Assembly (NCBI GenBank): GCA_012112355.1
Contig: GCA_012112355.1_3028.1
Reading direction: 5' to 3' (one strand)
Length of the DNA stretch: 64,000 nucleotides
DNA from: a phage
The first letter of the stretch is position 1. Every line of letters begins with the position of its first letter. A program made the position numbers and the translations under genes. The notes under the pieces are model-generated. The model had not been told where the DNA came from, searched no databases, and worked only from the letters and a program-made list of their open reading frames with translations. This document shows positions 7,128-62,613 of this stretch, one piece after another.

Positions 7128-7154
7128 TTTGTGTTCCTCATGTTATGTCAGTAA

Positions 7155-7190
7155 GATTACTATAACACAACACGAGGAACTTGTAAACTA
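7155..7190 (-). promoter_or_regulatory. T4-type early promoter (-35 GTTTAC, -10 TATAGT)
   Basis: GTTTAC..17-18 nt..TATAGT with conserved leader CTTACTGACATAACATGAGGA; -35 overlaps stop codon of upstream gene. Confidence 0.7.
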
Positions 7191-9245
7191 CATTTTGAAC
7201 TTTTTAGACATTCCGTTGATGTTAACCAAAGAAGCCAAGATTTGAGAAACTTCGTTTTCCTCTTCTTTTGATTCTTCTACGAGGAATTGATTAAACCCAG
7301 CCATTGGACGAACTTCGCCAGTTTCCATTAGATGATCGCCATCATATACCGATTCTTCTAATTGTTCAGAAGGAGGAACGATTGTGCCTTCGATTAGATA
7401 CTTGTTATAAGCAGTTTCTTTCATCATGTACGTGCTTACTTTATTAATCTTCAACAAAATTCCACGCGGTAGAATAACTTCAGCTTCTGATGGAAATCCT
7501 GATAAATGACCTGGAACGATAACTTTGATTCGCTCAGCCCCTTTAATTACCATACCTACGCTAGTTTCAGCATCTTCATTAGCATATGCAGAATGACTGC
7601 CCATATGCATTAAATCTTCAGCATCAACAGAACCTTCTCCTTCACCAGAAAATACTGCGCCGGAATCATCTAGAGCCATATAGTTTTTACCATGCTCACC
7701 GAAGATATTTGGTTTAAGCGATGTTGATACGAAGTTCTTGAAATAAAACATTTTATTTTCAATATTATGACGTAAAGTTTTAAAGGTAACTTCTTGTCCA
7801 CGATAAAGCGTAGTTCCTGGAGGAAGAACTGAACCTTTGGCAAAGGCAGAATCCATTGTCTCGATGTGTTTAATAGCTCGTTCCATGTATTCTTCACGGG
7901 TAGAATCTGGTTTACCCAAGAGGAACGAGTTCATTTCAACATATGAATCTGCACAATAATCTTCAATTACATCAGACTCAGCCTGAGTTAATCCTTTTGG
8001 AGTTACTTCGGTGCTTGCGTATTCATATGCCCGAGCAGCAGATTCATTAATCAATTTATAAATGCTATTCATGACAAATTGAATAATAGCTACTTTTTCG
8101 TCTGGCGTGGCTTTAGAACCTTTAACTAAATCATTGATAATTTTCTTAATAACATCAAAGCTATTAGAAATATTAATGTCAGCAAGATCGCTTAAAATTT
8201 TATCAGTTTTATAATCAAAGAATTCTTTATTCTTTAAATATTCTTGAGAACCTTGATATGTTATATCGCTCTGCAGCTTGATAGATGGATCGCGTAAACG
8301 TGCATGGGCCAATGCAATATGATTTCGGAAGTTTTCTAGTTCATAATCGTTAGATTTAAAACGAGAAGCACTTCTCATACCACCGATAGCTCCTTTGCTA
8401 AAGTTTGAACCAATCTGAATAACACCAGAGTTCATTGGTCCTTCTGCTTTATATACAGGAACTTTAGATTCAAACTCTTGATATTTCTTGGCAGCGAAGC
8501 TATCACCCTGAAGTGAAGCATCGACAGTAGAATATTGAGCTTGTGCTGCTAATCGACGACTAATTTTAGTTTTCTGAATAACAGCTTGATCCGTGCGCTT
8601 ATCATTTTCTAAGGCAATAGAAGCAGCAACAGCAACAGCTTTAGGAACAGCATTACCTGTTTTAACATCTACATAAACATCACCAACCTTTGATTCAACT
8701 TTTGTGAATAACTCAGTTGAAATAGGAGGTACACCTGGAATGTCTTCTAAATTGGCATTTTTACGGTAAACCATAATATATGCATACTTTTTATCATAAT
8801 CCCAGATTTCCTTTAAAAGAACATATCGACCTGCTCCTTTAGTACGTACTAAACGGTCAGCAATAACTTGCATTTGACGAGCTGCGCCATTTGTTTTACT
8901 TTTTAGTACGCGGAATAAGCATGCATCAATTTTATACTGTTTCATTGTTTGAAGAGCAGTATCAAAAACAGCATTAATGACGCCAATTGGATTTCCACCC
9001 AAGTTTTTAAGCTTAACTAATGATAGTTTCTCATTAACACCTATCATTACGATATGCATCATTTTGTCGCCTGGCTTAACGTTTTTATTCGTATCACCGC
9101 CAGAGGTGTATGTACAAAATCTAAATCCAGGAAGCACGCTTTCTTCACCGGCTTGAATAGCAAAAATTTGTGGTATTTTATGCTTAGGATTTAAGTTAAC
9201 AACCGGCGCCGAAGCGCCGTCAAATAATTCTGTAATAAGTTCCAT
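7188..9245 (-). CDS. Alt-like ADP-ribosyltransferase paralog (second copy)
   Basis: 685 aa; N-terminus MELITELFD and internal blocks shared with adjacent alt; C-terminal Y-R, FVSTSL, EAEVILPRG motifs. Confidence 0.8.
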   Translation of the reverse strand: MELITELFDGASAPVVNLNPKHKIPQIFAIQAGEESVLPGFRFCTYTSGGDTNKNVKPGDKMMHIVMIGVNEKLSLVKLKNLGGNPIGVINAVFDTALQTMKQYKIDACLFRVLKSKTNGAARQMQVIADRLVRTKGAGRYVLLKEIWDYDKKYAYIMVYRKNANLEDIPGVPPISTELFTKVESKVGDVYVDVKTGNAVPKAVAVAASIALENDKRTDQAVIQKTKISRRLAAQAQYSTVDASLQGDSFAAKKYQEFESKVPVYKAEGPMNSGVIQIGSNFSKGAIGGMRSASRFKSNDYELENFRNHIALAHARLRDPSIKLQSDITYQGSQEYLKNKEFFDYKTDKILSDLADINISNSFDVIKKIINDLVKGSKATPDEKVAIIQFVMNSIYKLINESAARAYEYASTEVTPKGLTQAESDVIEDYCADSYVEMNSFLLGKPDSTREEYMERAIKHIETMDSAFAKGSVLPPGTTLYRGQEVTFKTLRHNIENKMFYFKNFVSTSLKPNIFGEHGKNYMALDDSGAVFSGEGEGSVDAEDLMHMGSHSAYANEDAETSVGMVIKGAERIKVIVPGHLSGFPSEAEVILPRGILLKINKVSTYMMKETAYNKYLIEGTIVPPSEQLEESVYDGDHLMETGEVRPMAGFNQFLVEESKEEENEVSQILASLVNINGMSKKFKM

Positions 9246-9248
9246 GAT

Positions 9249-11345
9249 TTATCCTTGAACGAACTTGTAAGGCATGTTTGCAATATCTATGCAAGACGCA
9301 ATAATTCCAAGAGATGATTCTACTTTTTGTTTAACATTTGATGAAACAAATGATGCAAAGTCAACTCTGTCTTCTATTTCAATATCACCTGTCATTGCAA
9401 CTACTTCACCAGTTTCCATTAGACGGTCACCGTCATAAATTACCGATTCGGTGAGTTCTTCGGTGGTCATAACTTCAGCTTGAATGAGTTTTGTATTATT
9501 AGACGTGGTTCCGTCATTATTAGAAGCATCAGTTATTTTATTAACTTTGACCATCAATCCACGTGGTAGAATAACTTCAGCTTCTGTTGCTATTCCGAGA
9601 CTTCCTGGATATACAACATTAACTTTATGAGCTCCATCAATTGCCCATCCTATTTGAACTTTAACGTATTCAGGATTTTCTTTATACGCTCTTATTTCGT
9701 TTGGATTAATAGTTATTCCTTCTTCATTTTTATCAACTGTCAATTCATTACGAGCTTCTGGTTCTAAAAGACCAATACCAGCATGTGTAATTCCAAAACG
9801 TCCAAAAATGATAGGAGTTAAAGAAGTAGATACAAAATTTCTGAAATAGAACACTTTATTTTTAACTAGTGCTTCGTATATAGGAGCAGTCATGCTTTGA
9901 GCACGATAAACTGTAATGCCTTCTGGTATACGGTCACCATTTTCAAAAGCTGAATCTAAGTTATTTATAGCAGATTCAATTTCTTTTTCACTCATTACAT
10001 CATATCGTTCTGGATTGTAACGACCCAAAAGAAGATTATTGATGTCAGTATATCCTGAACCACAATACTCTCTAATGCCGCGCTTTTGTGATGGAGTATA
10101 TTTAGAACCATCACGGGCAATAGTAATATCAATCATTGGACCTGCACCAATTCCAGAAAAACTATAAATCATTCGTTTGAGGAATTTAGTTTTTGCTGCG
10201 TTCCAGGAATTTTTAGTTATTTCTTCCCAGACTTCATCTGGCTGCCCTTTACGAGTTTTATTATGTTTATCAAGCCATTTATCTTTGTATTCTTCAAAGA
10301 ATTTATTAACAGCTGCTGCGTATTTCTCTAAACATTTTATTGAAGTAGTTGGTTCATTTTTAATCGCATTAAGAATTACATCTTTAATTTTTTCAGAAAC
10401 TTCATTAACCTCACTTTTTGAAAAGAATTTATAGTCATAATGAAGTTCATCTGCAGTTCCTTCAGCAATAATTTTTGCTGCCTTAGTTTTAGAAGCCAAT
10501 GAATTAATTCCAAGTTTCATTTCTTCTGCTTCGGGAATTAAAGGAGCGGTAGCAGGTTTATTGAAATTAGCTGCGGTAGATTCATACTTCTGGAATAATT
10601 CACTTTCAAATCTAGAAGATTCTAATGATTGACTTTGTGCAATTGCTCTACGGGAAATTTTAACTTTAACGATTACAGCTTGGTCAGAACGTTTATCATT
10701 TTCTTGCGCAATAGATGCAGCAATTGCCTCATTTTTAGTTACTTGAGCTCCAGTATCTTTATTGATATAAACATCACCGACCTTCGATTCAACTTTAGTA
10801 AAGAGCTCGGTACTAATTTCCGGAACTCCTGGAATGTCTTCTAGTGATACATTTTTGCGATGTATAAGAATATATGCATACTTTTTATCGTAATCCCAGA
10901 GTTCCTTAAGAAGGACGTATCTGCCACCTGAACGACTGCGGATAAGTCTATCAGCAATAAGTTGAATTTGACGAGCTTGACCAGCAGTTTTAGACTTAAG
11001 AATACGAAGCATACAGGCATCAATTTTATACTGACGCATCGTCTGCATCGCAACAGTAAAAACTGAATTGATGTAATTAATTGGGCTTGGACCGAGACCT
11101 TTTAATTTAGCAATTGAACCTTTAGCAGTTAATGTAAAAGGAACAATATGCATCATTTTATCGCCCATCTTTAAATCGCGATTAGTATCACCTCCAGATG
11201 TATAGGTACATAAACGAAAGCCTGGTTGTTCAATTGCGTCATCAACATGAACTGAAAAAATTTGTGGTATTTTCTTCTTTGGATTTAAGTTTGTAATCGG
11301 AAGAGTAGTATCTTCGTCAAATAATTCTGTAATGAGTTCCATCAT
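9249..11345 (-). CDS. alt: ADP-ribosyltransferase Alt (capsid-packaged, injected)
   Basis: 698 aa; N-terminus matches T4 Alt as recalled; R-S-E ART motifs; late promoter upstream. Confidence 0.9.
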   Translation of the reverse strand: MMELITELFDEDTTLPITNLNPKKKIPQIFSVHVDDAIEQPGFRLCTYTSGGDTNRDLKMGDKMMHIVPFTLTAKGSIAKLKGLGPSPINYINSVFTVAMQTMRQYKIDACMLRILKSKTAGQARQIQLIADRLIRSRSGGRYVLLKELWDYDKKYAYILIHRKNVSLEDIPGVPEISTELFTKVESKVGDVYINKDTGAQVTKNEAIAASIAQENDKRSDQAVIVKVKISRRAIAQSQSLESSRFESELFQKYESTAANFNKPATAPLIPEAEEMKLGINSLASKTKAAKIIAEGTADELHYDYKFFSKSEVNEVSEKIKDVILNAIKNEPTTSIKCLEKYAAAVNKFFEEYKDKWLDKHNKTRKGQPDEVWEEITKNSWNAAKTKFLKRMIYSFSGIGAGPMIDITIARDGSKYTPSQKRGIREYCGSGYTDINNLLLGRYNPERYDVMSEKEIESAINNLDSAFENGDRIPEGITVYRAQSMTAPIYEALVKNKVFYFRNFVSTSLTPIIFGRFGITHAGIGLLEPEARNELTVDKNEEGITINPNEIRAYKENPEYVKVQIGWAIDGAHKVNVVYPGSLGIATEAEVILPRGLMVKVNKITDASNNDGTTSNNTKLIQAEVMTTEELTESVIYDGDRLMETGEVVAMTGDIEIEDRVDFASFVSSNVKQKVESSLGIIASCIDIANMPYKFVQG

Positions 11346-11365
11346 ATCCTCTCTAGTGTTTATTC

Positions 11366-11373
11366 TATTTATA
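11366..11373 (-). promoter_or_regulatory. T4 late promoter TATAAATA for alt
   Basis: TATAAATA on minus strand about 20 nt upstream of alt ATG. Confidence 0.65.
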
Positions 11374-11378
11374 AAATT

Positions 11379-11396
11379 AAAGGCCCGAAGGCCTTT
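11379..11396 (-). terminator. stem-loop (CGAA tetraloop) terminator / RNA stability hairpin
   Basis: AAGGCC-CGAA-GGCCTT between small ORF and alt promoter. Confidence 0.5.
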
Positions 11397-11583
11397 AATA
11401 ATCTATTGGTAAGAGAGTACGATATATTTCAAACTTTGGACCTTTTTCATAGGCATCAAATGTTTCTGTGAATTTATTATAAGCATATGCATCTATAAAT
11501 TCAATCATAATTTGTGATACAGAAGTAGAAACATCTCCACCTTCTTTTTGAGCAACGACAATTGTTTCTAAGTAAGCTTTCAT
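11395..11583 (-). CDS. hypothetical protein
   Basis: 62-aa ORF, ATGA overlap with gene 30 stop. Confidence 0.55.
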   Translation of the reverse strand: MKAYLETIVVAQKEGGDVSTSVSQIMIEFIDAYAYNKFTETFDAYEKGPKFEIYRTLLPIDY

Positions 11584-15719: not shown

Positions 15720-15755
15720 GTATATAATATCATATCCTGTACCAAAGTAAACAAT
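15720..15755 (-). promoter_or_regulatory. T4-type early promoter
   Basis: GTTTAC..17..TATTAT followed by TTGGAGAATAAAATG. Confidence 0.65.
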
Positions 15756-16107: not shown

Positions 16108-16146
16108 TAAGATAATACTATCACAAAGGAACCATACTGTAAACAA
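16108..16146 (-). promoter_or_regulatory. T4-type early promoter
   Basis: GTTTAC plus -10-like TAGTAT, then AAGGAGAATAAAATG. Confidence 0.6.
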
Positions 16147-19129: not shown

Positions 19130-19164
19130 GCTATAATATCACAACTCTACCAAAAAGTAAACTA
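19130..19164 (-). promoter_or_regulatory. T4-type early promoter
   Basis: GTTTAC..17..TATTAT then SD GAGGAAAA. Confidence 0.65.
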
Positions 19165-19643: not shown

Positions 19644-21054
<1,411 letters not shown>

Positions 21055-22428: not shown

Positions 22429-22449
22429 AAAGTCCTCATGTTATGTCAG

Positions 22450-22488
22450 TAAGATTACTGTAACACAACACGAGGGACTTGTAAACAG
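22450..22488 (-). promoter_or_regulatory. T4-type early promoter upstream of alc
   Basis: GTTTAC..TACAGT with the same leader as the promoter at 7155..7190. Confidence 0.7.
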
Positions 22489-29417: not shown

Positions 29418-30244
<827 letters not shown>

Positions 30245-30255
30245 ATTATCTCCTA

Positions 30256-30588
30256 TTAAAAAGGATCAGGAACATATCCACTAGCTTTAATCATTTTAAC
30301 TAATGTTACCATTCCTTTGTTAATTGCTTGTGAGATTTCATCAAAAACTTCATCATTAAAAAGTTCTAGCACACCCTTCTGAACTTTTAATTTACAGCCA
30401 ACAATTTCGTCATCGCCTATAGTAAATTCATTACCGCCAATTCCACCGAAAAACTTAATTACCCCAGTTAACTGTCTTCCACGAGAATATGGGTCATGTG
30501 ATAAAGTAATATGAGTCACCCCAGGTACAGTTTTAAATTGACAGCGAATGTTTACTTGAGAAATTCCAGTTACATGAATGTCAGACAT
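30256..30588 (-). CDS. hypothetical protein
   Basis: 110-aa ORF. Confidence 0.55.
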   Translation of the reverse strand: MSDIHVTGISQVNIRCQFKTVPGVTHITLSHDPYSRGRQLTGVIKFFGGIGGNEFTIGDDEIVGCKLKVQKGVLELFNDEVFDEISQAINKGMVTLVKMIKASGYVPDPF

Positions 30589-30598
30589 AATATTTTCC

Positions 30599-30841
30599 TC
30601 AAACAGACTTTTTCACAGTTTTCCAATCAGCTTTAAACTGATCAACATCAGAATGGTAAATCCAGAATCCTGCGCTTTCTCCATCCTCATAAAGAGGGCA
30701 TCCATCGCATTCATCTTCCCATCCCATATCACGCAAAAGACGTTCAGCTTTTTCAACGAGTTCAGAATCTTTACCGATGATATTAAAATACCATTTACCT
30801 CTAACTTCTGAATCTTTGATGCTCTGGCGTTGTAATCTCAT
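30599..30841 (-). CDS. hypothetical protein
   Basis: 80-aa ORF; RBS AAGGAGAATAAAATG; early promoter upstream. Confidence 0.55.
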   Translation of the reverse strand: MRLQRQSIKDSEVRGKWYFNIIGKDSELVEKAERLLRDMGWEDECDGCPLYEDGESAGFWIYHSDVDQFKADWKTVKKSV

Positions 30842-30861
30842 TTTATTCTCCTTAGTTGATA

Positions 30862-30898
30862 GGGTAATAGTATCACACTACTACCCTTCTGTAAACTA
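30862..30898 (-). promoter_or_regulatory. T4-type early promoter cassette
   Basis: GTTTAC (overlapping upstream stop TAG) ..TACTAT.. conserved leader CTATCAACTAAGGAG. Confidence 0.65.
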
Positions 30899-31258
30899 CT
30901 TTTTGAAAGTTTTTCGCAAAAGTTCAATGATTTCATCTACATTGTTTTCGTCAACAATGCAGTGAATTTTTGTTACGCCAGAAACCTTGTCTTCTATTTC
31001 ATCTTCAGAAGTCGGTTCTTTATACTCACGAAAACAATGAAATTCATCTTCGCAGACGTTGAAGTAAAAATGCTTTCCATTGGCGCATTCTACGTGTTTT
31101 ACTACTTTAAATCCATCAGCAAAGAAAACTTCTTTAACTTCAAACCATCCGCCATTTTCTTGAATAGCTTTAACTATTAATGAATTAGAACGCGGGCGAT
31201 AATTAATAAATGTATCAATAAGTCTTGGAACAAGTTCGTACTTTTTATCAATATACAT
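30896..31258 (-). CDS. hypothetical protein
   Basis: 120-aa ORF. Confidence 0.55.
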   Translation of the reverse strand: MYIDKKYELVPRLIDTFINYRPRSNSLIVKAIQENGGWFEVKEVFFADGFKVVKHVECANGKHFYFNVCEDEFHCFREYKEPTSEDEIEDKVSGVTKIHCIVDENNVDEIIELLRKTFKK

Positions 31259-31277
31259 TATGTTTTCCTCATTTTAA

Positions 31278-31296
31278 TAGGGGCTTGATAGCCCCT
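31278..31296 (-). terminator. intergenic stem-loop
   Basis: AGGGGCT-TGAT-AGCCCCT hairpin. Confidence 0.4.
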
Positions 31297-31302
31297 CGAT
31301 AA

Positions 31303-31533
31303 TTACTGTTCAATCAATCCCATGTAAAATTCTGCATCTTCAGCATCCATACCATCACAGTATTCATTAGCCATAAATCGTTCAAGAACTTCTAAAGGAC
31401 CTTCAATAACAATAGAAAAATTGCAATAATTGGGATCATCATGAATACTTGTGATACTAAGTTCAGGATAACGATTACGAATAATTTCTTCAATATATTC
31501 AAAATCAACGATGTCAATATCAACTTTAGCCAT
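31303..31533 (-). CDS. hypothetical protein
   Basis: Start at internal MAKVDIDIV; track ORF extends upstream through the promoter cassette. Confidence 0.5.
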
Positions 31534-31562
31534 ATTGTTTTCCTCTTTAATCATCAGCAGTA

Positions 31563-31635
31563 TTGCCGATAGTTGTATAGTACCACAGTATGCTTTGGTT
31601 GTAAACCGTTTTGTGAAAAAATTTTTGAAATAAAA
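31563..31635 (-). promoter_or_regulatory. T4-type early promoter cassette with A/T-rich UP region (copy 1 of near-identical pair)
   Basis: GTTTAC..TACTAT plus leader; about 70 nt nearly identical to 48915..48988. Confidence 0.7.
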
Positions 31636-31639
31636 AAAG

Positions 31640-31660
31640 GGGACCTCTAAGGTCCCCAAT
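31640..31660 (-). terminator. rho-independent terminator downstream of gene 32
   Basis: GGGGACC-TCTAA-GGTCCCC plus T-run on minus strand. Confidence 0.75.
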
Positions 31661-32588: not shown

Positions 32589-32690
32589 TTTTATTTCCTT
32601 TTTTAATTTAATTAACAGTTGGTGCTATGACGATGTATGACCTCATAGCTGGTCAGTGAGATAATTATAATTTATTTATAATAAGCAATT
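32589..32690 (-). promoter_or_regulatory. gene 32 leader: MotA-box middle promoter, late promoter TATAAATA, long 5' UTR (site of the gp32 translational operator in T4)
   Basis: TTGCTTAT box and TATAAATA on minus strand about 90 nt upstream of ATG. Confidence 0.5.
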
Positions 32691-34877: not shown

Positions 34878-34910
34878 CTATTATATACCATCCAAATCTT
34901 AAAGTAAACA
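34878..34910 (-). promoter_or_regulatory. T4-type early promoter for rnh
   Basis: GTTTAC..18..TATATAAT then GAGG SD. Confidence 0.6.
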
Positions 34911-34954: not shown

Positions 34955-37900
34955 ATGGCCGAGATTAAAAGAAAGTTCAGAGCAGAAGACGGTCTGGACG
35001 CAGGTGGTGATAAAATAATCAACGTAGCTTTAGCTGATCGTACCGTAGGAACTGACGGTGTTAACGTTGATTACTTAATTCAAGAAAACACAGTTCAACA
35101 ATATGATCCAACTCGTGGATATTTAAAAGATTTTGTAATCATTTATGATAACCGCTTTTGGGCTGCTATAAATGATATTCCAAAACCAGCAGGAGCTTTT
35201 AATAGCGGACGCTGGAGAGCATTACGTACCGATGCTAACTGGATTACGGTTTCATCTGGTTCATATCAATTAAAATCTGGTGAAGCTATTTCGGTTAACA
35301 CTGCAGCTGGAAATGACATCACGTTTACTTTACCATCTACTCCAATTGATGGTGATACTATCGTTCTCCAAGATATTGGAGGAAAACCTGGAGTTAACCA
35401 AGTTTTAATTGTAGCTCCAGTGCAAAGTATTGTAAACTTTAGAGGTGAACAAGTACGTTCAGTACTAATGACTCATCCAAAGTCACAGCTAGTTTTAATT
35501 TTTAGTAATCGTCTGTGGCAAATGTATGTTGCTGATTATAGTAGAGAAGCTATAGTTGTAACACCAGCGAATACTTATCAAGCGCAATCCAACGATTTTA
35601 TCGTACGTAGATTTACTTCTGCTGCACCAATTAATATTAAACTTCCGAGATTTGCTAATCATGGCGATATTATTAATTTCGTCGATTTGGATAAATTAAA
35701 TCCTCTTTATCATACAATTGTTACTACATACGATGAAACGACTTCAGTACAAGAAGTTGGAACTCATTCCATTGAAGGCCGTACATCAATTGACGGTTTC
35801 TTGATGTTTGATGATAATGAGAAATTGTGGAGATTGTTTGACGGGGATAGTAAAGCACGTTTACGCGTTATAACAACTAATTCTAATATTCGTCCAAATG
35901 AAGAAGTTATGGTATTTGGTGCGAATAACGGAACAGCTCAGACAATTGAACTTCAGCTTCCGACTGATATTTCTGTTGGTGATACTGTTAAAATTTCCAT
36001 GAATTACATGAGAAAAGGACAAACAGTTAAAATCAAAGCTGCCGGTGAAGATAAAATTGCTTCTTCGGTTCAATTGTTGCAATTCCCAAAACGCTCAGAA
36101 TATCCACCTGAAGCTGAATGGGTTACAGTTCAAGAATTAGTTTTTAACGGTGAAACTAATTATGTTCCAGTTTTACAACTTGCTTATATAGAAGATTCTG
36201 ATGGAAAATACTGGGTTGTGCAACAAAATGTTCCAACCGTAGAAAGAGTAGACTCTTTAAATGATTCTACTAGAGCAAGATTAGGCGTAATAGCTTTAGC
36301 TACACAAGCTCAAGCTAATGTCGATTTAGAAAATTCTCCACAAAAAGAATTAGCAATTACTCCAGAAACGTTAGCTAATCGTACTGCTACTGAAACTCGT
36401 AGAGGTATTGCAAGAATAGCAACTACTGCCCAAGTGAATCAGAACACCACATTCTCTTTTGCAGATGACCTTATCATTACTCCTAAAAAGCTGAATGAAA
36501 GAACTGCTACAGAAACTCGCAGAGGTGTCGCAGAAATTGCTACACAACAGGAAACTAATACAGGTACTGATGATACTACAATCATCACTCCTAAAAAGCT
36601 TCAAGCTCGTCAAGGTTCTGAATCATTATCTGGTATTGTAACTTTTGTATCTACTGCAGGTGCTACTCCGGCTTCTAGCCGCGAATTAAATGGTACCAAC
36701 GTTTATAATAAAAACACTAATAATTTAGTTGTTTCACCTAAAGCTTTGGATCAGTATAAAGCTACTCCAACGCAACAAGGTGCAGTAATTTTAGCAGTTG
36801 AAAGTGAAGTAATTGCTGGACAAAGTCAGCAAGGATGGGCAAATGCTGTTGTAACGCCAGAAACGTTACATAAAAAGACATCAACTGATGGAAGAATTGG
36901 TTTAATTGAAATTGCTACGCAAAGTGAAGTTAATACAGGAACTGATTATACTCGTGCAGTCACTCCTAAAACTTTAAATGACCGTAGAGCAACTGAAAGT
37001 TTAAGTGGTATAGCTGAAATTGCTACACAAGTTGAATTCGACGCAGGCGTCGACGATACTCGTATCTCTACACCATTAAAAATTAAAACCAGATTTAATA
37101 GTACTGATCGTACTTCTGTTGTTGCTCTATCTGGATTAGTTGAATCAGGAACTCTCTGGGACCATTATACCCTTAATATTCTTGAAGCAAATGAGACACA
37201 ACGTGGTACACTTCGTGTAGCTACACAAGTTGAAGCTGCTGCAGGAACACTAGATAATGTTTTAATAACTCCTAAAAAGCTTTTAGGTACTAAATCTACT
37301 GAAGCACAGGAAGGTGTTATTAAAGTTGCAACTCAGTCTGAAACTGTGACTGGAACGTCGGCAAATACTGCTGTATCTCCAAAAAATTTAAAATGGATTG
37401 TGCAGAGTGAACCTACTTGGGCAGCTACTACTGCAATAAGAGGTTTTGTTAAAACTTCATCCGGTTCTATTACATTCGTTGGTAATGATACAGTTGGTTC
37501 AACACAACCTTTAGAATCATATGAAAAAAATAGCTATGCTATATCTCCATATGAATTAAACCGTGTACTTGCTAACTATTTGCCATTGAAAGCTAAAGCC
37601 GTAGATAGTAATTTATTGGATGGTCTAGATTCATCTCAGTTCATTCGTAGGGACATTGCACAGACGGTTAATGGTTCACTAACCTTAACCCAACAAACGA
37701 ATCTGAGTGCCCCTCTTGTATCATCTAGTACTGCTACGTTCGGTGGATCAGTTTCAGCAAATAGTACATTAACTATTTCTAATACTGGAACGACTTCTTC
37801 TCGATTTACATTTGAGAAAGGTCCTGCTTCTGGTAGTAATGCTGATTCTGCATTGTATGTTCGTGTATGGGGTAATAAGTACAGCGGCGGTTCTGATGTA

Positions 37901-46446: not shown

Positions 46447-46599
46447 TCAATTAGTTGACTTTGTTATAATATCATCAGACGCTTGATTTGTAAACTGGTC
46501 TGTGTTATTTTCTTCAAAAATTTTTTCTACGAATTCCTTGAACGACTTACGTTCCTGAGCTACATTATGCTCGATTACTTTTTCAAGATTATGACTCAT
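46447..46599 (-). CDS. small hypothetical protein (50 aa), contains the asiA early promoter
   Basis: ATGA overlap with arn stop; MSHNLEKVIEHNVAQERK..; not in ORF track (below 60 aa). Confidence 0.4.
   Translation of the reverse strand: MSHNLEKVIEHNVAQERKSFKEFVEKIFEENNTDQFTNQASDDIITKSTN
46460..46496 (-). promoter_or_regulatory. T4-type early promoter for asiA
   Basis: GTTTAC..17..TATTAT. Confidence 0.6.
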
Positions 46600-47456: not shown

Positions 47457-47917
47457 TAGTAAAGGTCCTCAGAGTAAAGTTCTTTTTCATTACCACCACG
47501 TTCAATACGTACTTGTCCAGCGTAAGTTGCAATAATCATTGCTTCTTCACGTGTCCAATAATTACTATATTGGTCAATAAACCCTTGGTCATCATCACAA
47601 ACTTGTTGAGTAACTAATTGAGGTTTAACTACATCTAAAACTTCTGCCATATCTTTAGAATAATGACGAGCACCTGGAATAATAAGAGTTCGTCCATCTT
47701 TTAATTTAAAACGGTTGGCTGCGCAGACAATTCGTCGTTGATACTTTTGGTTTTCATCCCAATACAGAGTCTGCCAACAGATTTCAGGAACTTCGTCTAA
47801 AACATTTTGTTCTGTATATTCACCACCGTAAGAAGCTAATTTAGCAGCCAGACTTTCCGGAGTCTCACGCGACAAAGCTTTATCTAACAGAGCTAAACGT
47901 TCTTTAAAAGTTTTCAT
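47456..47917 (-). CDS. hypothetical protein
   Basis: 153-aa ORF. Confidence 0.55.
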
Positions 47918-48243
47918 TTAAACCATTCCTTAATACGTTGCCAAATAGATTTTTGTGCTTGTTTATTTACACCAATCGAACGAATAACCGGTTGTGACTG
48001 CTGATATTCTTTATAATCTTCTTTATAGATTTCGTAAGCTGCATCAACAAATGAACTGATCGCTGCCATGTAGTTTTTACGAAGGCCAAATGGCGCGTCA
48101 TTATTTTCACGAATAACCGTATATTGGCCTGCTTTAATCTTTACGATAGTTCCAAGATAAGCTCCATGATACCAGATGTCCCAACCCTCTTGGGTAGGTT
48201 CTGCACAACGACGAAGTTCATTAACAATTTCTAACTTGTTCAT
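47914..48243 (-). CDS. hypothetical protein
   Basis: 109-aa ORF. Confidence 0.55.
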
Positions 48244-48253
48244 TATTTATTCC

Positions 48254-48889
48254 TCACAGTTCAGATGCTACAGTGATTACTGCTTCAATGTTTTCTACCG
48301 AGCGTTTAATGTCAAGATACACATTACCGTTTTTAGCGATTTTACATGACATTCCGATGTCAGTAAATTTCTGAATATGATGTTCCATCATTTTGTATCC
48401 AAAAATTCGCATGTTTCCATTGTTGTTAATTTCAAAATTACGAATTCCGTGAGTGCGTTTTTCTAAAATGGCAAGATAATTACTACGATAAGTTTCAACC
48501 TTTTTAAGAACAAATCCATTTTCATCTAAAAGTTTTAACATGAGGTCTTTATCTTCTTCCATATCGGAAGTAATCTCGCGAGCTTTACGAGTTGCTCGTT
48601 TTTTCAGTAGTTCCGGAGCATTTTCCTGTGCATATAAAGTTGCTGCATTTGAAATAATATCCTGAGCTTCACCAGTAATGATTAATCCATCACCAGATTT
48701 CTCCACCAGGCCTTTTTTAATCAATACCCCAATATTACTATTAACTACTGCGTTACCTAAATCTGGATGCACCTCACGAACTTCTGCAGCTGTAATGAAA
48801 TCTTTCTTAGCAATAGTAATTAAAATCGCAGCAGTTTTTTCATTCAGAACATCGTTAGAAGCTTTGATGATGTAAGTTACTTTAGACAT
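48254..48889 (-). CDS. motA: middle transcription activator MotA
   Basis: 211 aa, matches T4 MotA as recalled. Confidence 0.95.
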   Translation of the reverse strand: MSKVTYIIKASNDVLNEKTAAILITIAKKDFITAAEVREVHPDLGNAVVNSNIGVLIKKGLVEKSGDGLIITGEAQDIISNAATLYAQENAPELLKKRATRKAREITSDMEEDKDLMLKLLDENGFVLKKVETYRSNYLAILEKRTHGIRNFEINNNGNMRIFGYKMMEHHIQKFTDIGMSCKIAKNGNVYLDIKRSVENIEAVITVASEL

Positions 48890-48914: not shown

Positions 48915-48988
48915 AGTAGTTGATAGTTGTATAGTACCACAGTATGCTTTGGTTGTAAACCGTTTTATGAAAAAATTTTTGAAATAAA
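48915..48988 (-). promoter_or_regulatory. T4-type early promoter cassette for motA (copy 2 of near-identical pair)
   Basis: Nearly identical over about 70 nt to 31563..31635, including UP region. Confidence 0.7.
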
Positions 48989-48989
48989 A

Positions 48990-49010
48990 AAGGGAGAGCC
49001 GAGGCTCTCC
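48990..49010 (-). terminator. rho-independent terminator
   Basis: GGGAGAGCC-GA-GGCTCTCCC plus T-run on minus strand. Confidence 0.7.
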
Positions 49011-49016
49011 CTAAAA

Positions 49017-52054: not shown

Positions 52055-52092
52055 CCGTAGTTGATAGGGTAATAGTACCACGGAAGAACAGT
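52055..52092 (-). promoter_or_regulatory. T4-type early promoter cassette
   Basis: GTTTAC..TACTAT with conserved leader. Confidence 0.6.
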
Positions 52093-52286
52093 CTTGTAAA
52101 CAACTTTTTTAAAAATATTCGTAATAAATGTGAATACCAACTACTACCGCTGAAACCTGTGCAACCCACCACGCACAAGCAATAAGTACAGAATTCAAAA
52201 TTTTCATAATAACCTCATCACAAAAGTAAATGTTAAACAAATTACTGGAATACTAATTAACCAAACAAAACACCACCATAATGAAC

Positions 52287-52581: not shown

Positions 52582-52618
52582 AGTTGTATAGTACCACGGT
52601 CCTTGTGGTATGTAAACC
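52582..52618 (-). promoter_or_regulatory. T4-type early promoter cassette
   Basis: GTTTAC..TACTAT plus leader CAACTACTGATACGG and a small CCACGG/CCGTGG hairpin. Confidence 0.65.
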
Positions 52619-53192: not shown

Positions 53193-53237
53193 TTAAACTT
53201 TCCTTTATGTCGGAATCATAATTTCTCTTAAAACAAA

Positions 53238-53252
53238 AGGGCCGAAGCCCTT
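53238..53252 (-). terminator. stem-loop terminator
   Basis: GGGCC-GAAG-CCC hairpin with T-run on minus strand. Confidence 0.55.
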
Positions 53253-53255
53253 ATT

Positions 53256-53450
53256 TTATTTGAATTGTGCGATTCTTTTCTCTAGACACTCAGCATAAGA
53301 TTTCATTGAGATGAACTGCGAAAGTAGCAGTTCTTGCTCAACTGCGTTAACTGTTAGAAACTTTGCGCTTTCTAAAAATTTGCTCAGTGCATTAATTTTG
53401 AGCATTAATTGATCGTATTCTTCTTTTACTCGTGCTTGATAACCTAACAT
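53256..53450 (-). CDS. hypothetical protein
   Basis: 64-aa ORF. Confidence 0.5.
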   Translation of the reverse strand: MLGYQARVKEEYDQLMLKINALSKFLESAKFLTVNAVEQELLLSQFISMKSYAECLEKRIAQFK

Positions 53451-53482
53451 AATTTTCCTTAATATGATAAGGGCCGAAGCCC

Positions 53483-54421
53483 TTATTTAAATTGTTCAGT
53501 AACGTCTTCAACTACTTCGTATTGGCAGGTACGCATTTTAGCATCGTTGTAATCAATCGGAATTGATACTACATCGCGTGGATGTACTTTAACTTTTACA
53601 ACTCGGCTGGTTGAACCACCGAAGTGACGAATATAAGATTTAGAACACACATGCAGACCACGAGAACAAGTTTGTGTATCATCGTCATTCACACGAGTAC
53701 GCGGCATTTTAACTACTTTACCCGGACTGTTATCAAAGGTGTTTGAGTGACAGTCAAAGTAATTGCTGCGAACTACTTTCCAAGCATAGAAGTAACCATC
53801 TTCTGTAATTTCAATATCGTTTGCTACCAAGAAATCAAAGAGTCGAGATACCGCTTTTTGGCTTGGGTTTTCCAGCAGATTTTCCAAGAACGGAAAATAA
53901 AATTCAAAGTTTTCGCCTTTTTCCATCGAGTCAAGAATACGATCAACCAAACCAGACCGCAATTCGATATTTTGATAGAACAAGCTTCCACCTTCAATTC
54001 GAACATCGCCGGAAATATATTTTTCAACAGCACGGCGAACATTAATTTTTTGTGCAGCTTCTTCCAGCTTATCCGCTACAAGCAGATTAAGAATTTCCTG
54101 GAAGTTTGAATGAGTATTAGGAGTTGCGTTATAAGTTACACCGTCAACAGTAATTGAAATGAATTTTTTAGATGCATTCCAAATAATGTCAGATTTAGCA
54201 ACTGGAGCAATAACTGCATCGCTATTAACTTTAATTGTAATATCACCGCTAATAGTAACTTTAGAGCGTTTAGCTTCTTCAGCATTTTTCAAAACACGAC
54301 GAATTGTGTCAACCGATACACCTTGCCAATCAGCCAATTCCTGTTGGGTGTAATTACCACTTGAATACAGCTTAACAATTTCAGCTTGTTCGTTTTTGGT
54401 CAGGCATTTAATATTGTACAT
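53483..54421 (-). CDS. rIIB: RIIB (lysis inhibition / Rex sensitivity)
   Basis: 312 aa. Confidence 0.95.
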   Translation of the reverse strand: MYNIKCLTKNEQAEIVKLYSSGNYTQQELADWQGVSVDTIRRVLKNAEEAKRSKVTISGDITIKVNSDAVIAPVAKSDIIWNASKKFISITVDGVTYNATPNTHSNFQEILNLLVADKLEEAAQKINVRRAVEKYISGDVRIEGGSLFYQNIELRSGLVDRILDSMEKGENFEFYFPFLENLLENPSQKAVSRLFDFLVANDIEITEDGYFYAWKVVRSNYFDCHSNTFDNSPGKVVKMPRTRVNDDDTQTCSRGLHVCSKSYIRHFGGSTSRVVKVKVHPRDVVSIPIDYNDAKMRTCQYEVVEDVTEQFK

Positions 54422-56844: not shown

Positions 56845-56880
56845 AATTAATTATACCACATCCTTGTGGTAAAGTAAACT
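56845..56880 (-). promoter_or_regulatory. T4-type early promoter
   Basis: GTTTAC (overlapping gene 39 stop) ..17.. TATAAT. Confidence 0.7.
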
Positions 56881-58699: not shown

Positions 58700-58747
58700 T
58701 TATCCTCGTTTGGTTTCGGGAATATTATACTCCGGTAATCATAAAGC

Positions 58748-58768
58748 TAAAGGCCCGAAGGCCTTTTA
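58748..58768 (-). terminator. stem-loop terminator
   Basis: AAAGGCC-CGAA-GGCCTTT with T-run. Confidence 0.6.
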
Positions 58769-59035
58769 TTTAAAACGAATAGTTGAATCCTTAAAGAACA
58801 GCCCAGAACATACTGTTCCTTCTACTTTCTGCCCGGTAGGTCCAATAGCACGAAATCCAGTATGTTGGAAATCATTTTCAGAGCAACCGAACCAGTTATA
58901 TCCAGTGATTTCAATATTAGTAAAACCACTTGAAGACAAAACTTTAGTTGCATTATCAGCATCAGTACATCCTACTAAAAACACTGCTAATACTAATGCT
59001 GCGATAGAACGATTAATATATTTCATAATTTTCAC
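58766..59035 (-). CDS. putative lipoprotein
   Basis: 89 aa; signal peptide with lipobox LVGC. Confidence 0.55.
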   Translation of the reverse strand: MKIMKYINRSIAALVLAVFLVGCTDADNATKVLSSSGFTNIEITGYNWFGCSENDFQHTGFRAIGPTGQKVEGTVCSGLFFKDSTIRFK

Positions 59036-61559: not shown

Positions 61560-61596
61560 GGAACCATTATACTCTGGTCCCAAGAGTTTGTAAACT
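61560..61596 (-). promoter_or_regulatory. T4-type early promoter
   Basis: GTTTAC (overlapping upstream stop) ..TATAAT. Confidence 0.7.
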
Positions 61597-62577: not shown

Positions 62578-62613
62578 GTGTTATAGTACCATAACTAACC
62601 GAGGAAGTAAACA
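62578..62613 (-). promoter_or_regulatory. T4-type early promoter cassette
   Basis: GTTTAC..TACTAT then GAGGATAATAAAATG. Confidence 0.65.

Follow-up and report, generated by a model that had tools for sequence, protein, structure and literature searches.

PeSL (promoter-early stem-loop) cassettes of T4-type phages had their anatomy defined by Arbiol et al. (Arbiol 2010, PMC2839356), and the class was later extended to the T4/PST pair with the consensus TTTACW-N17-TAYWAT (Comeau 2014, PMC4122927). The early promoters of T4, termed Pe, are defined as those fired right after infection by the unmodified host RNA polymerase, without phage protein synthesis, and they share a consensus that reaches past the hexamers to a UP element, a TGn motif and other regions (Hinton 2010, PMC2988021). 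A further arrangement is described for T4 e, soc, 49 and I-TevI, which are controlled through a promoter lying inside a hairpin (reviewed in PMC3014915). Recombination in T4 needs only short homology (Singer 1982, cited in PMC2839356).

Here we compare with these systems a pair of near-identical intergenic cassettes from a T4-like phage. Our explanation as a whole, to which we assign a probability of about 0.85, is that both would be T4-type early PeSL promoters whose near-identity would have arisen by short-patch ectopic gene conversion, from the motA promoter into the spacer of the frd.3 promoter.

The two cassettes and their setting

The window, by which we mean the whole 64,000-nt stretch of DNA analysed, is 95-99.8% identical to Tequatrovirus genomes and has the gene order 32/frd.3 and motA.1/motA in common with them; judged by its sequence, its source is a Tequatrovirus (T4-like) phage. 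Copy A is predicted to be the immediate-early promoter of the frd.3 unit, just past the gene 32 terminator, and copy B that of the motA unit, just past the motA.1 terminator, the promoter and terminator roles being assigned by orthology and consensus. Cassette A is bounded by the stop of gene 32 (31680) and the ATG of frd.3 (31533), cassette B by the stop of motA.1 (49017) and the ATG of motA (48889); their parts are as follows.

31639..31657, minus strand: predicted gene 32 intrinsic terminator hairpin, GGGGACC-TTAG-AGGTCCCC (read from sequence, RNA fold, Lutter annotation)
31632-31638, minus strand: T-run of the copy A terminator, T7 (read from sequence)
31568..31638, minus strand: copy A block, comprising T-run and A/T UP-like tract, -35, spacer, TGg and -10, and start region to about +10 (repeat search, alignment; promoter annotated at the orthologous Lutter site)
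31601-31606, minus strand: copy A -35, GTTTAC (read from sequence)
31585..31599, minus strand: copy A spacer patch, 15 nt, ACCAAAGCATACTGT, motA-type (alignment of 10 relatives, record counts, Lutter mismatch cluster)
31577-31582, minus strand: copy A -10, TACTAT, preceded by TGg (read from sequence)
31531-31533, minus strand: frd.3 ATG (read from sequence)
48991..49012 (49012-48986 including the T-run), minus strand: predicted motA.1 intrinsic terminator hairpin, AGGGAGAGC-CTCG-GCTCTCCCT, then T-run (hairpin scan, fold, annotation)
48922..48991, minus strand: copy B block, predicted motA early promoter and proposed spacer donor (repeat search; the identical T4 core carries -35/-10 annotation)
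48955-48960, minus strand: copy B -35, GTTTAC (read from sequence)
48931-48936, minus strand: copy B -10, TACTAT (read from sequence)
48887-48889, minus strand: motA ATG (read from sequence)

Transcription from copy A is predicted to start near 31570. The gene 32 terminator hairpin folds with -15.2 kcal/mol in a 70-nt context, and that of motA.1, with 9 pairs of which 6 are G-C, with -21.1 kcal/mol. Existing annotation agrees with these assignments: phage Lutter carries a 'promoter' and a 'terminator' at the site orthologous to A, the 40-nt motA core of the T4 record Z48569 is identical to copy B and annotated minus_35_signal and minus_10_signal, and both KAW1E185 and NR1 have a 'terminator' annotated at the motA.1 site. 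Searching the full 64-kb window against Rfam returned no family at gathering score.

The initial annotation had read the two copies as PeSL cassettes, each beside a GC hairpin terminator, and on both points it is borne out: a GC hairpin with T-run, a predicted terminator, stands directly upstream of each copy, and both match the published T4/PST definition in consensus and in an upstream stem-loop. Both read TTTACA-N17-TACTAT; TTTTTTATTTCAAAAATTTTTTCAcAAAAC lies upstream of each, and the 35 nt upstream of the -35 are 77-80% A+T. The stop of the upstream gene lies at the 5' end of each cassette and the start of the downstream gene at its 3' end. As for indels and replacements, site A adjoins the variable frd.1-frd.3 region with its indels, and site B can hold an extra ORF. 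On these sequence features, A and B are an already-described kind of element, the PeSL cassettes of a T4-type phage. They share with that class the A/T-rich tract, the sigma-70-type early promoter with 17-nt spacing, the stem-loop and the Shine-Dalgarno and ATG of the downstream gene, and also the occurrence of many dispersed early-strand copies tied to indels and mosaic junctions between close relatives; the position of the stem-loop just upstream of the promoter, as in T4/PST, is matched exactly. The classic PeSL setting is a hyperplastic region, whereas the neighbours of A and B are core genes of replication and transcription. They belong equally to the T4 Pe class, with its 'uber' combination of UP, -35, TGn and -10: they have the GTTTAC -35, the TGn extended -10, the A/T UP element, further conserved positions, the early strand and T4 orthology, and nothing essential sets them apart; the frd.3 promoter carries a spacer allele other than that of T4.

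The promoter family to which they belong stands out clearly in the window. GTTTAC-N17/18-TAnnnT has 16 matches on the minus strand and none on the plus strand, against 0.81 +/- 0.93 (maximum 4) in 200 first-order Markov simulations, and the longer pattern GTTTAC-N15-19-TAnnAT-N5-TATC has 5 against 0.00 expected. Fourteen of the 16 sites have a T4 ortholog with exact GTTTAC at the equivalent position, and one, 35437, which is antisense within gene 34, may be a chance match. Lists of T4 early promoters are reportedly to be found in Wilkens & Ruger 1996 and Miller et al. 2003. A generic sigma-70 scan yielded 74 sites against 73.2 in shuffles and did not set the region apart, so that only the T4-specific extended consensus carries signal. 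The extended module had initially been described at ten or more minus-strand intergenic sites; the number and strand hold (16 against 0.8 expected), although several sites fall within the 3' end of the preceding gene. The more detailed common features fared less well. TACTAT is the -10 at only 6 sites, the supposedly shared leader AACTATCAACTACTGATAC is exact at 2 and has two mismatches at a third, and a canonical hairpin terminator stands directly upstream of only 3 promoters (31606, 48960 and 16144); the ribosome-binding site GGAGAATAAAATG, said to be often present, does recur, at 5 sites.

Near-identity of the two copies

A repeat search aligned 31568-31643 with 48922-48997, on the same strand and 17,354 nt apart, at 96% identity over 76 nt. 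In gapped alignment this becomes a block of 70 nt interrupted by one C/T mismatch, TTTTTTATTTCAAAAATTTTTTCA[C/T]AAAACGGTTTACAACCAAAGCATACTGTGGTACTATACAACTATC, so the near-identity over about 70 nt claimed at the outset is upheld. The block begins at the upstream terminator's T-run and continues to +10, ending sharply where the leaders diverge, and on self-alignment the likeness thus reaches past the -35 and -10 hexamers. Among promoter pairs, A/B is the top outlier for overall identity (z = 5.0).

Likeness of this kind might be expected of functional convergence, in which A and B would simply be the two best fits to one extended consensus, with no transfer of sequence. T4 early promoters do share a consensus beyond the hexamers (PMC2988021), and that of 14 sites in the window agrees, retaining A/T upstream positions, TGTGg ahead of the -10 and part of the start region. 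The spacer, however, falls outside this consensus, with a mean identity of 34% over 105 promoter pairs, and yet is identical at 15 of 15 positions in A and B.

Spacer alleles at the frd.3 site

In T4, the frd.3 and motA promoters share flanks and differ in the 15-nt spacer. The frd.3 spacer of T4 is different and palindromic, that of T2 is of a third type, and that of the window is motA-type; alignment of 10 relatives accordingly gave three block alleles at frd.3 inside near-identical flanks. Their frequencies were surveyed in the GenBank phage collection across about 470 relatives, by megablast with junction-specific queries of 43 and 53 nt and coverage thresholds. Allele c, specific to the site, was found at frd.3 in 321 records, T2 included; allele b, of the nrdC.10-promoter type, in 102, T4 included; and allele a, of the motA-promoter type and the one present in the window, in 43, these being record counts that include duplicate and laboratory-variant entries and do not count independent lineages. 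Queries of 66 nt, used at first, separated the alleles poorly, megablast extending across the mismatched spacer, and pattern scans of IMG/VR, in which T4-type contigs are few, gave only 3 and 2 loci. Assembly collapse is an unlikely source of the motA-type spacer at frd.3, because as many as 43 records carry it there.

At the motA site allele a occurs in 355 records, and at the nrdC.10 site allele b occurs in 330, including T2, whose frd.3 allele is c. Since alleles a and b are thus common at motA and nrdC.10, their home sites, transfer would have run from home site to frd.3, a direction that is drawn from allele frequencies and not from a rooted tree; the nrdC region of this phage lies outside the window. 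On the conversion reading, frd.3 has been overwritten by the motA core in about 9% of sequenced genomes and by the nrdC.10 core in about 22%.

A further comparison is with Lutter, which has allele b. Lutter and the window differ by 4 mismatches in about 700 nt downstream of the promoter and by 7 in just the one 50-nt bin containing the spacer; the spacer difference is a discrete patch. Replacement of the frd.3 spacer while its flanks stay near-identical points to short-patch ectopic gene conversion. Convergence fares badly against these data: frd.3 orthologs carry two other, unrelated spacers in 423 records inside the same flanks, and the change relative to Lutter is a clustered block instead of scattered substitutions. 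Allele alignment, record counts and the Lutter patch together effectively refute it, and we regard it as scarcely credible.

A second alternative is that a whole PeSL cassette moved, copy A being a transposed or duplicated motA cassette that arrived, for example, by way of a mini-circle. Excision and integration of mini-circles between PeSLs has been shown experimentally in RB49/phi1 (PMC2839356), and genomes of the GADU22 type have an entire promoter-flanked ORF inserted at site B. Yet copy A keeps a gene 32-type terminator, conserved in all relatives, together with its own leader and ribosome-binding site; the alleles differ only in the interior, with no extra gene or duplicated flank; and on both sides of the patch the window is near-identical to allele-b Lutter. 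Movement of the entire cassette is for these reasons unlikely.

The positions of the junctions bear on a third possibility, in which a dedicated recombinase or DNA-binding protein recognises the GGGG...CCCC stem-loop and brings about integron-like exchange. This was raised as speculation by Arbiol et al. (PMC2839356), and the cassettes A, B and T4 nrdC.10 do all have hairpins of a G-run and a C-run. The exchanged patch, however, lies about 40 nt downstream of the hairpin, which is itself unchanged, and hairpin sequences vary between sites and, at one site, between phages. Nor are the junctions fixed, falling within the spacer in PinkRuby, in the UP tract between PinkRuby and the window, and at the flanks of the spacer between Lutter and the window. 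A recombinase of this kind is highly improbable. The PinkRuby motA promoter is a chimera with its junction inside the spacer, which indicates that crossover points vary, as expected of homologous exchange; an exact donor for it was not found among the loci of relatives examined.

Two further observations bear on the conversion reading. The window holds a second near-identical pair, with 96% identity in a 54-nt stretch that begins with the -35 and ends with the Shine-Dalgarno:

7159..7188, minus strand: predicted early promoter paired with 22457-22486, with a strong -10-spanning hairpin (-27.5 kcal/mol, z -6.3)
22457..22486, minus strand: predicted early promoter, partner of 7159-7188, with hairpin (-25.7 kcal/mol, z -5.9; T4 ortholog 136336, upstream of alc)

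This pair (7188/22486) shows concerted substitution, both members reading aatctt in the window and both agtctt in T4. In the alignment of 10 relatives, variants of the terminator loop are incongruent with the spacer alleles, which fits either one conversion followed by spread through ordinary exchange between phages, or several independent conversions.

Proposed origin and working of the pair

We envisage the history of the pair in two layers. In the first, A, B and the T4 nrdC.10 promoter form one terminator-preceded subfamily, which has in common about 40 nt on its left side, namely T-run, UP tract and -35, and 17 nt on its right side (GGTACTATACAACTATC). In the second, the spacer of the motA promoter would have replaced that of the frd.3 site in the lineage of the window, the spacer being the only part that normally differs. 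As to enzymology, phage homologous recombination or copy-choice repair would be guided by the two conserved arms, though the right-hand arm, at only 17 nt, is short for a classical double crossover and counts against the scheme. The frd.3 site would be a repeated recipient, having taken the nrdC.10 spacer in T4 and about 100 other records and keeping a spacer found only at this site in most relatives. In T4 the gene for the homing endonuclease SegG presumably adjoins the gene 32 site, and we may speculate that double-strand breaks made by SegG near gene 32 contribute.

In operation, by analogy with T4, the host sigma-70 RNA polymerase would bind the UP tract, GTTTACA, TGn and TACTAT and fire at once after infection, while the upstream hairpin and T-run would stop incoming transcripts and so insulate each unit. 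This scheme of firing and insulation draws on what is established for T4 early promoters.

The proposed gene conversion between A and B resembles concerted evolution as generally described, in that a short block is replaced between non-allelic repeats with flanks conserved, paralogs have lineage-specific substitutions in common, and donor and recipient are clearly asymmetric; it differs in its repeat unit, a regulatory cassette some 70-100 nt long belonging to a lytic phage, and in its tract of only about 15-40 nt. The PeSL papers describe something else, in which nearby cassettes exchange genes by way of 0.4-1.4-kb mini-circles, whereas here a 15-nt spacer is replaced from a cassette 17 kb away (91 kb in T4) and no gene is moved. 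The words conversion, concerted and homogeni* are absent from PMC2839356.

Shuffling and proposed rearrangement at the sites

The proposal that the cassettes are sites of shuffling finds support at both copies, in addition to the footprint of past exchange between them. At A, the breakpoint of a mosaic between PinkRuby and the window falls inside the cassette, in the UP tract, mismatches resuming at 31622, and identity to T4 and T2 is about 85% downstream of A as against 95-99% in gene 32. At B, GADU22 has an extra ORF of 75 aa between two promoters with a repeated leader, and this ORF is present in 168 records.

A stronger claim had been that recombination between the copies could delete or invert the 17 kb between them, and with it the tail-fibre host-range module; the pair would then be an active substrate, biologically consequential, for deleting, inverting or mobilising this segment. 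A near-perfect repeat of 70 nt does exceed the short homology reported for T4 recombination (PMC2839356), and A and B have clearly swapped sequence in the past. Both copies, however, lie on the minus strand and are direct repeats, which makes inversion impossible. In principle, recombination between direct repeats of this length could yield a deletion and a 17.35-kb circle, but the interval contains 32, 59, 33, dsbA, rnh, 34-38, t, asiA and motA. Several of these genes, including 32, 33 and 34-38, are required for growth, as established by T4 genetics. A deletion product lacking them would be a dead end, and no route for exchange of a host-range module; a 17-kb duplication, for its part, would exceed the headful capacity of T4. 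The deletion junction (motA.1 terminator, promoter, frd.3 leader) was found in 0 of 503 records at a coverage of at least 80%, and the reciprocal junction (gene 32 terminator, promoter, motA leader) had no true instance in about 500 relatives. Three apparent matches to the latter, at 84% coverage, were rejected, since they reflect a third variant of the terminator at the usual motA locus; UFV-AREG1 has the terminator variant GGGGAGC-TTCG-GCTCCCC at motA.1-motA. The cassettes do not bound the tail-fibre genes either, lying about 3.3 kb from them on either side, and published mini-circles are of 0.4-1.4 kb and derive from nearby PeSLs (PMC2839356). An active role of the pair in such rearrangement is very unlikely.

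Implications

For the most part these results confirm the published model, in which cassettes of promoter and hairpin serve T4-type genomes both as expression signals and as recombination linkers. The modest new point, which is mentioned in neither PMC2839356 nor PMC4122927, is that cassettes would swap their own interiors over long distances. More generally, we think it likely that dispersed early cassettes of T4-type phages evolve in concert, by frequent short-patch ectopic conversion over 17-91 kb, with frd.3 as a recurrent recipient. If so, promoter cores move between sites as modules while the genes under their control stay put, and the frd.3 site, with its three alleles, offers an easy natural way of following ectopic recombination in phage populations.

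Pairs of near-identical promoters in such genomes would then be footprints of conversion rather than signs of shared regulation, and the strength or Alt-dependence of promoters could be reshuffled with every gene left in its place. Host range would be left untouched, the pair not mobilising the tail-fibre module. On the practical side, the frd.3 site is a convenient polymorphic marker, and repeats of 70-80 nt like A and B could confuse short-read assembly.

Other early promoters and their hairpins

The remaining family members with promoter-like features, predicted from consensus, orthology and folding, are as follows.

15724..15752, minus strand: early promoter with -10-spanning hairpin GGTACAGG..CCTGTACC (z -5.3; T4 ortholog 129918)
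16115..16144, minus strand: early promoter after a canonical terminator, GGACTCC-TTCG-GGAGTCC plus T-run (T4 ortholog 130310, upstream of 30.8)
19133..19162, minus strand: early promoter with -10-spanning hairpin (z -4.7; T4 ortholog between cd.3 and cd.2)
30867..30896, minus strand: early promoter upstream of frd.1, with -10-spanning hairpin GGGTA..TACCC (z -3.15)
34880..34909, minus strand: early promoter upstream of rnh that lacks a significant hairpin (T4 ortholog 150763)
46466..46495, minus strand: early promoter upstream of asiA, inside asiA.1 (T4 ortholog 161211)
52072..52101, minus strand: early promoter within a -10-spanning hairpin in which the GGAGG Shine-Dalgarno pairs with the spacer (-22.7 kcal/mol, z -4.8; T4 ortholog 166807)
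52588..52617, minus strand: closest relative of A and B, with the same UP tract and -10/+1 block, leader AACTATCAACTACTGATAC and ribosome-binding site GGAGAATAAAATG (repeat search, alignment)
56850..56879, minus strand: early promoter with a small CCAC..GTGG hairpin in the spacer (T4 ortholog 2458)
61566..61595, minus strand: early-promoter-like site (matching T4 core at 7215, upstream of motB)
62583..62612, minus strand: early promoter whose -10-spanning hairpin takes in the Shine-Dalgarno (-23.7 kcal/mol, z -6.0; T4 ortholog 8218)

The promoter at 52588..52617 also has a small CCAC..GTGG hairpin in its spacer, and its matching T4 core lies at 167086. At the cd.3/cd.2 site, a misc_feature of the T4 record refers to an early promoter 'Pe133295'.

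Folding of 13 promoters of the window gave 7 with a strong -10-spanning hairpin (z about -3.2 to -6.3), whose 5' arm precedes the predicted start and whose 3' arm falls in the leader, the Shine-Dalgarno being covered in 4. In the folding model, only read-through RNA from upstream would form these hairpins and hide the ribosome-binding site. The arrangement, predicted for 7 of the 13, resembles the control of T4 e, soc, 49 and I-TevI, although those genes use late promoters and the hairpin promoters of the window are early; A and B have no such hairpin and are preceded by a terminator instead. Hairpins overlapping the -10 are likewise a common subclass among the PeSLs of RB49/phi1, and the idea that they represent an undescribed feature is rejected, hairpins between or overlapping the boxes being already listed in PMC2839356 as the commonest PeSL subclasses. 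At the frd.1 promoter site, RB14 has a block-swapped core in which the hairpin is kept (GGCTAT..ATAGCC).

The paired cassettes and their genomic setting

The regions of both sites are 95-99.8% identical to Tequatrovirus (T4-like) genomes, and the early-transcribed strand of the window is the minus strand. Gene order, taken from the window's ORF positions and the annotation of T4, PinkRuby, RB14, T2 and ime09, begins on that strand with 52, motA.1, site B, motA, the arn genes and asiA; t, 38, 37, 36, 35 and 34 follow, all on the plus strand, and then rnh, dsbA, 33, 59, 32, site A, frd.3, frd.2, frd.1 and frd. Both sites are intergenic.

Site A, 31568-31638, minus strand: frd.3 early promoter after the gene 32 terminator, between the gene 32 stop (31680) and the frd.3 ATG (31533)
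Site B, 48922-48991, minus strand: motA early promoter after the motA.1 terminator, between the motA.1 stop (49017) and the motA ATG (48889)

The homing-endonuclease gene segG, which lies between 32 and 59 in T4, is absent from that position in the window (32589-32688). Between frd and frd.1, at 29999-30588, the window has two additional small ORFs (81 and 110 aa); T4 is without them and PinkRuby has both.

A repeat search of the window matched 31568-31643 to 48922-48997 at 96% identity over 76 nt, in direct orientation and 17,354 nt apart, and gapped alignment left a single mismatch in a 70-nt block, as the initial annotation had proposed. The shared block reaches from the T-run of the terminator to about +10, with a sharp end at the start of the frd.3 and motA leaders. 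A GC hairpin and T-run lie upstream of each copy (GGGGACC-TTAG-AGGTCCCC at A, AGGGAGAGC-CTCG-GCTCTCCCT at B), which bears out the terminators predicted there. Across 105 promoter pairs, identity averages 42% (sd 8%) over 100 nt and 34% in the spacer, the 15 nt between the -35 and the extended -10; A/B deviates most of all (z = 5), and no other pair reaches 100% in the spacer. Similarity is not limited to the -35/-10 hexamers but spans 70 nt, spacer included, and so the observation stands.

The window cassettes match the T4 early promoter class, defined by UP/-35/TGn/-10 plus further conserved positions (PMC2988021), and the composite promoter-early stem-loop (PeSL) cassettes first described in RB49/phi1 (PMC2839356) and later listed for T4/PST, where the consensus is TTTACW-N17-TAYWAT and the stem-loop lies immediately upstream of the promoter (PMC4122927). 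The record of phage Lutter annotates the promoter and terminator of site A as such, and T4 record Z48569 marks -35 and -10 on a motA promoter core that is the same as copy B across 40 nt. Sites A and B have every sequence feature that defines PeSLs and T4 early promoters, in support of the proposed PeSL interpretation. Earlier publications already cover this type of element, its role as a recombination linker and its occurrence in T4-like coliphages, and the finding is therefore already known. To this we make one addition, namely that the cassette interiors themselves appear to have been swapped between sites tens of kilobases apart, frd.3 being the receiving site more than once. Judged from sequence, our confidence is roughly 85%, both for the predicted promoter/terminator identity and for an origin of the pair by conversion.

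The promoter family in the window

Sixteen matches to GTTTAC-N17/18-TAnnnT lie on the minus strand and none on the plus strand, against a simulated chance expectation of 0.81 +/- 0.93; the initial annotation had suggested at least ten minus-strand sites with a common module. The T4 ortholog carries an exact GTTTAC at the equivalent position for 14 of the 16; site 35437, antisense in gene 34, may be a chance match. Parts of that description of the module were overstated. TACTAT is the -10 in six sites but not in the rest, and the shared 19-nt leader is exact at two sites and carries two mismatches at a third, beyond which it was overstated. The same applies to the ribosome-binding site GGAGAATAAAATG, said to be present often but occurring five times, and a canonical terminator lies directly upstream of three promoters only.

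A second near-identical pair (7135-7188 and 22433-22486, minus strand, 15.3 kb apart) is 96% identical over 54 nt, from the -35 through the Shine-Dalgarno. T4 carries the counterparts upstream of alt.-3 (123093) and of alc (136336). The sequence at +2 is aatctt in the two window copies and agtctt in the two from T4, a lineage-specific substitution common to the two promoters that we read as a sign of concerted evolution.

Folding of each promoter from the -35 to the start codon, with comparison to 200 shuffles, revealed two architectures. Strong hairpins spanning the -10 were predicted at seven promoters, named here by their -35-side coordinate (62612, 52101, 30896, 22486, 19162, 15752 and 7188), with energies of -16 to -27.5 kcal/mol and z scores of -3.2 to -6.3, and none of the 200 shuffles was as stable; promoter 16144 has a weaker example. 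Folding gave no such hairpin at A or B (z = -1.6 and +0.25), which have the upstream terminator in its place. The 5' arm lies in the untranscribed spacer and the 3' arm in the leader, where it covers the Shine-Dalgarno in four of the seven. The predicted hairpins would form solely in read-through RNA from upstream, and for that reason may block translation or attenuate read-through. They resemble the late-promoter cases of T4 e, soc, 49 and I-TevI. In RB49/phi1, the commonest PeSL subclasses have their stem-loop between the promoter boxes or overlapping them (PMC2839356), and most window promoters are thus PeSLs in the published sense. No Rfam families were found in the 64-kb window.

Probable exchange of promoter cores

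In T4, the frd.3 and motA promoters have in common a left arm of about 40 nt (T-run, UP tract and -35) and a right arm of 17 nt (the -10/+10 block), whereas the 15-nt spacers between them differ (GCATAAAGCTTTATG at frd.3, CCAAAGCATACTGTG at motA). Alignment of the frd.3 site from ten relatives resolved three block alleles in otherwise near-identical flanks.

Spacer alleles at the frd.3 promoter. Counts, from junction-specific queries against 50,697 GenBank phage records, are of database records and not of independent lineages.
Allele; type; examples; records
a; motA-type; window, PinkRuby, RB14; 43
b; palindromic T4 type; T4, Lutter, ime09; 102
c; T2 type; T2 and three IMG/VR contigs; 321

Counted in the same way, the motA leader follows allele a in 355 records and the nrdC.10 leader follows allele b in 330, T4 itself and T2 among the latter; allele c is essentially confined to the frd.3 site, at about one place per record. 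With allele b at both frd.3 and nrdC.10, T4 has a near-identical pair of its own, about 91 kb apart. The element at these two T4 promoters (L001 2347-2368 and L015 6356-6377, respectively) may be a protein-binding site or a mere small stem-loop.

In the roughly 700 nt that follow the promoter, Lutter (allele b) and the window (allele a) show four mismatches, against seven in the single 50-nt bin that holds the spacer. The spacer change has the form of a discrete patch, and block replacement is indicated by the alignment. We conclude that the frd.3 promoter core was in all probability replaced on two or more occasions, from two distinct remote donors, and that the window carries what appears to be the motA-derived version; allele frequencies suggest transfer from donor to frd.3. 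The process would be short-patch ectopic gene conversion via the conserved arms, with an enzymology that, from known T4 biology, could be homologous recombination or synthesis-dependent repair. Short homology suffices for T4 recombination (cited in PMC2839356). The 2010 PeSL paper (PMC2839356) makes no mention of conversion or concerted evolution.

Other promoters bear what look like further traces of exchange, among them the substitution shared by 7188 and 22486. The PinkRuby motA promoter (L009 about 19770-19817) is a chimera whose junction lies within the spacer, the motA-type left half AACCAAAGCAT being followed by TCCATGGTACTATTACCCTATC, a sequence similar to the ndd-region and frd.1 promoters; none of the loci retrieved contained an exact donor. 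At the RB14 frd.1 promoter (L010 about 1800-1831), the spacer and start block (AACGGGCTATGGTAATGA..AGCCTTATC) are wholly unlike those of other relatives (AGAAGGGTAGTAGTGTGA..TACCCTATC). The inverted repeat across the -10 is kept in both versions of what reads as another promoter-core block swap.

Mosaicism and the proposed rearrangement

Comparison with five relatives places a mosaic boundary at site A. Gene 32 matches each of them at 95-99%; immediately past A on its downstream side, T4 and T2 drop to about 85% and PinkRuby climbs to 99.6-100%, and further on, at 30000-30500, there are indels. The PinkRuby switch lies inside the cassette, with four mismatches over 30600-31621 and divergence resuming at 31622.

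No identity switch was found at site B in the same five relatives. In GADU22 (L014 1146-1612), the motA.1 terminator and motA are separated by a 75-aa ORF (MKFKIENEIV...) with an early promoter on either side; the two promoters have the leader CTATCAAATAAATGAACTGAAAC in common, and the upstream one has the palindromic nrdC.10/T4-frd.3 core. The ORF is absent from the window and occurs in 168 records, once per genome, at about 161-165 kb (the motA region) where numbering is standard; phages of Klebsiella, Citrobacter and Enterobacter have more divergent versions (57-71% identity). Its presence or absence at site B matches the insertion/deletion pattern predicted by the PeSL model. The arn.4/arn.3 stretch at 47650-48150 is 76-86% identical to all five relatives between flanks of 96-99%; it is a diverged allele of a small early gene that follows closely on motA.

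The initial annotation also proposed that the pair could mediate a 17-kb REARRANGEMENT affecting host range. Inversion is excluded because both copies are on the same strand, from which recombination can excise or duplicate the interval but never invert it. The interval contains 32, 59, 33, dsbA, rnh, 34-38, t, asiA, the arn genes and motA, several of which are essential in T4, so that a deletion product would be non-viable; a 17-kb duplication would exceed T4 headful capacity. Among about 500 genomes searched, the deletion junction was present in 0 of 503 records at >=80% coverage, the best matches beginning at the T-run and being ordinary frd.3 sites, and no true reciprocal junction was found. 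Three apparent reciprocal matches were rejected as a third terminator variant at the normal motA locus. Deletion is accordingly not supported. Nor is the host-range role, since the cassettes lie about 3.3 kb from gene 34 and, on the other side, about 3.4 kb from gene 38 and do not delimit the tail-fibre module. Rare A/B junction molecules in lysates are possible; nothing ties them to a change of host range.

Other repeats

A tandem pair of about 2.1-kb units (families D1, D4, D5, D12 and D18) occupies about 7300-11500, at T4's alt position, with 71-94% identity and start-to-start spacing of 2091-2097. The phage seems to carry two full-length Alt-like ADP-ribosyltransferase paralogs there; T4 has duplication remnants only, alt.-1 and alt.-2, according to a note in its record. 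Short GC hairpins (AAGGGCCGAAGCCCTT and AAAGGCCCGAAGGCCTTT) are repeated at 53222-53262 and 53454-53494 and at 11366-11399 and 58736-58769, with 78-85% identity between copies, and look like bidirectional terminators reused at several intergenic sites. Within gene 34, in-frame short direct repeats at 36359-37281 (families D6 and D10; 27-35 nt, 66-80% identity, spacings in multiples of 3) presumably encode repeated structural motifs of gp34, the proximal tail-fibre protein.
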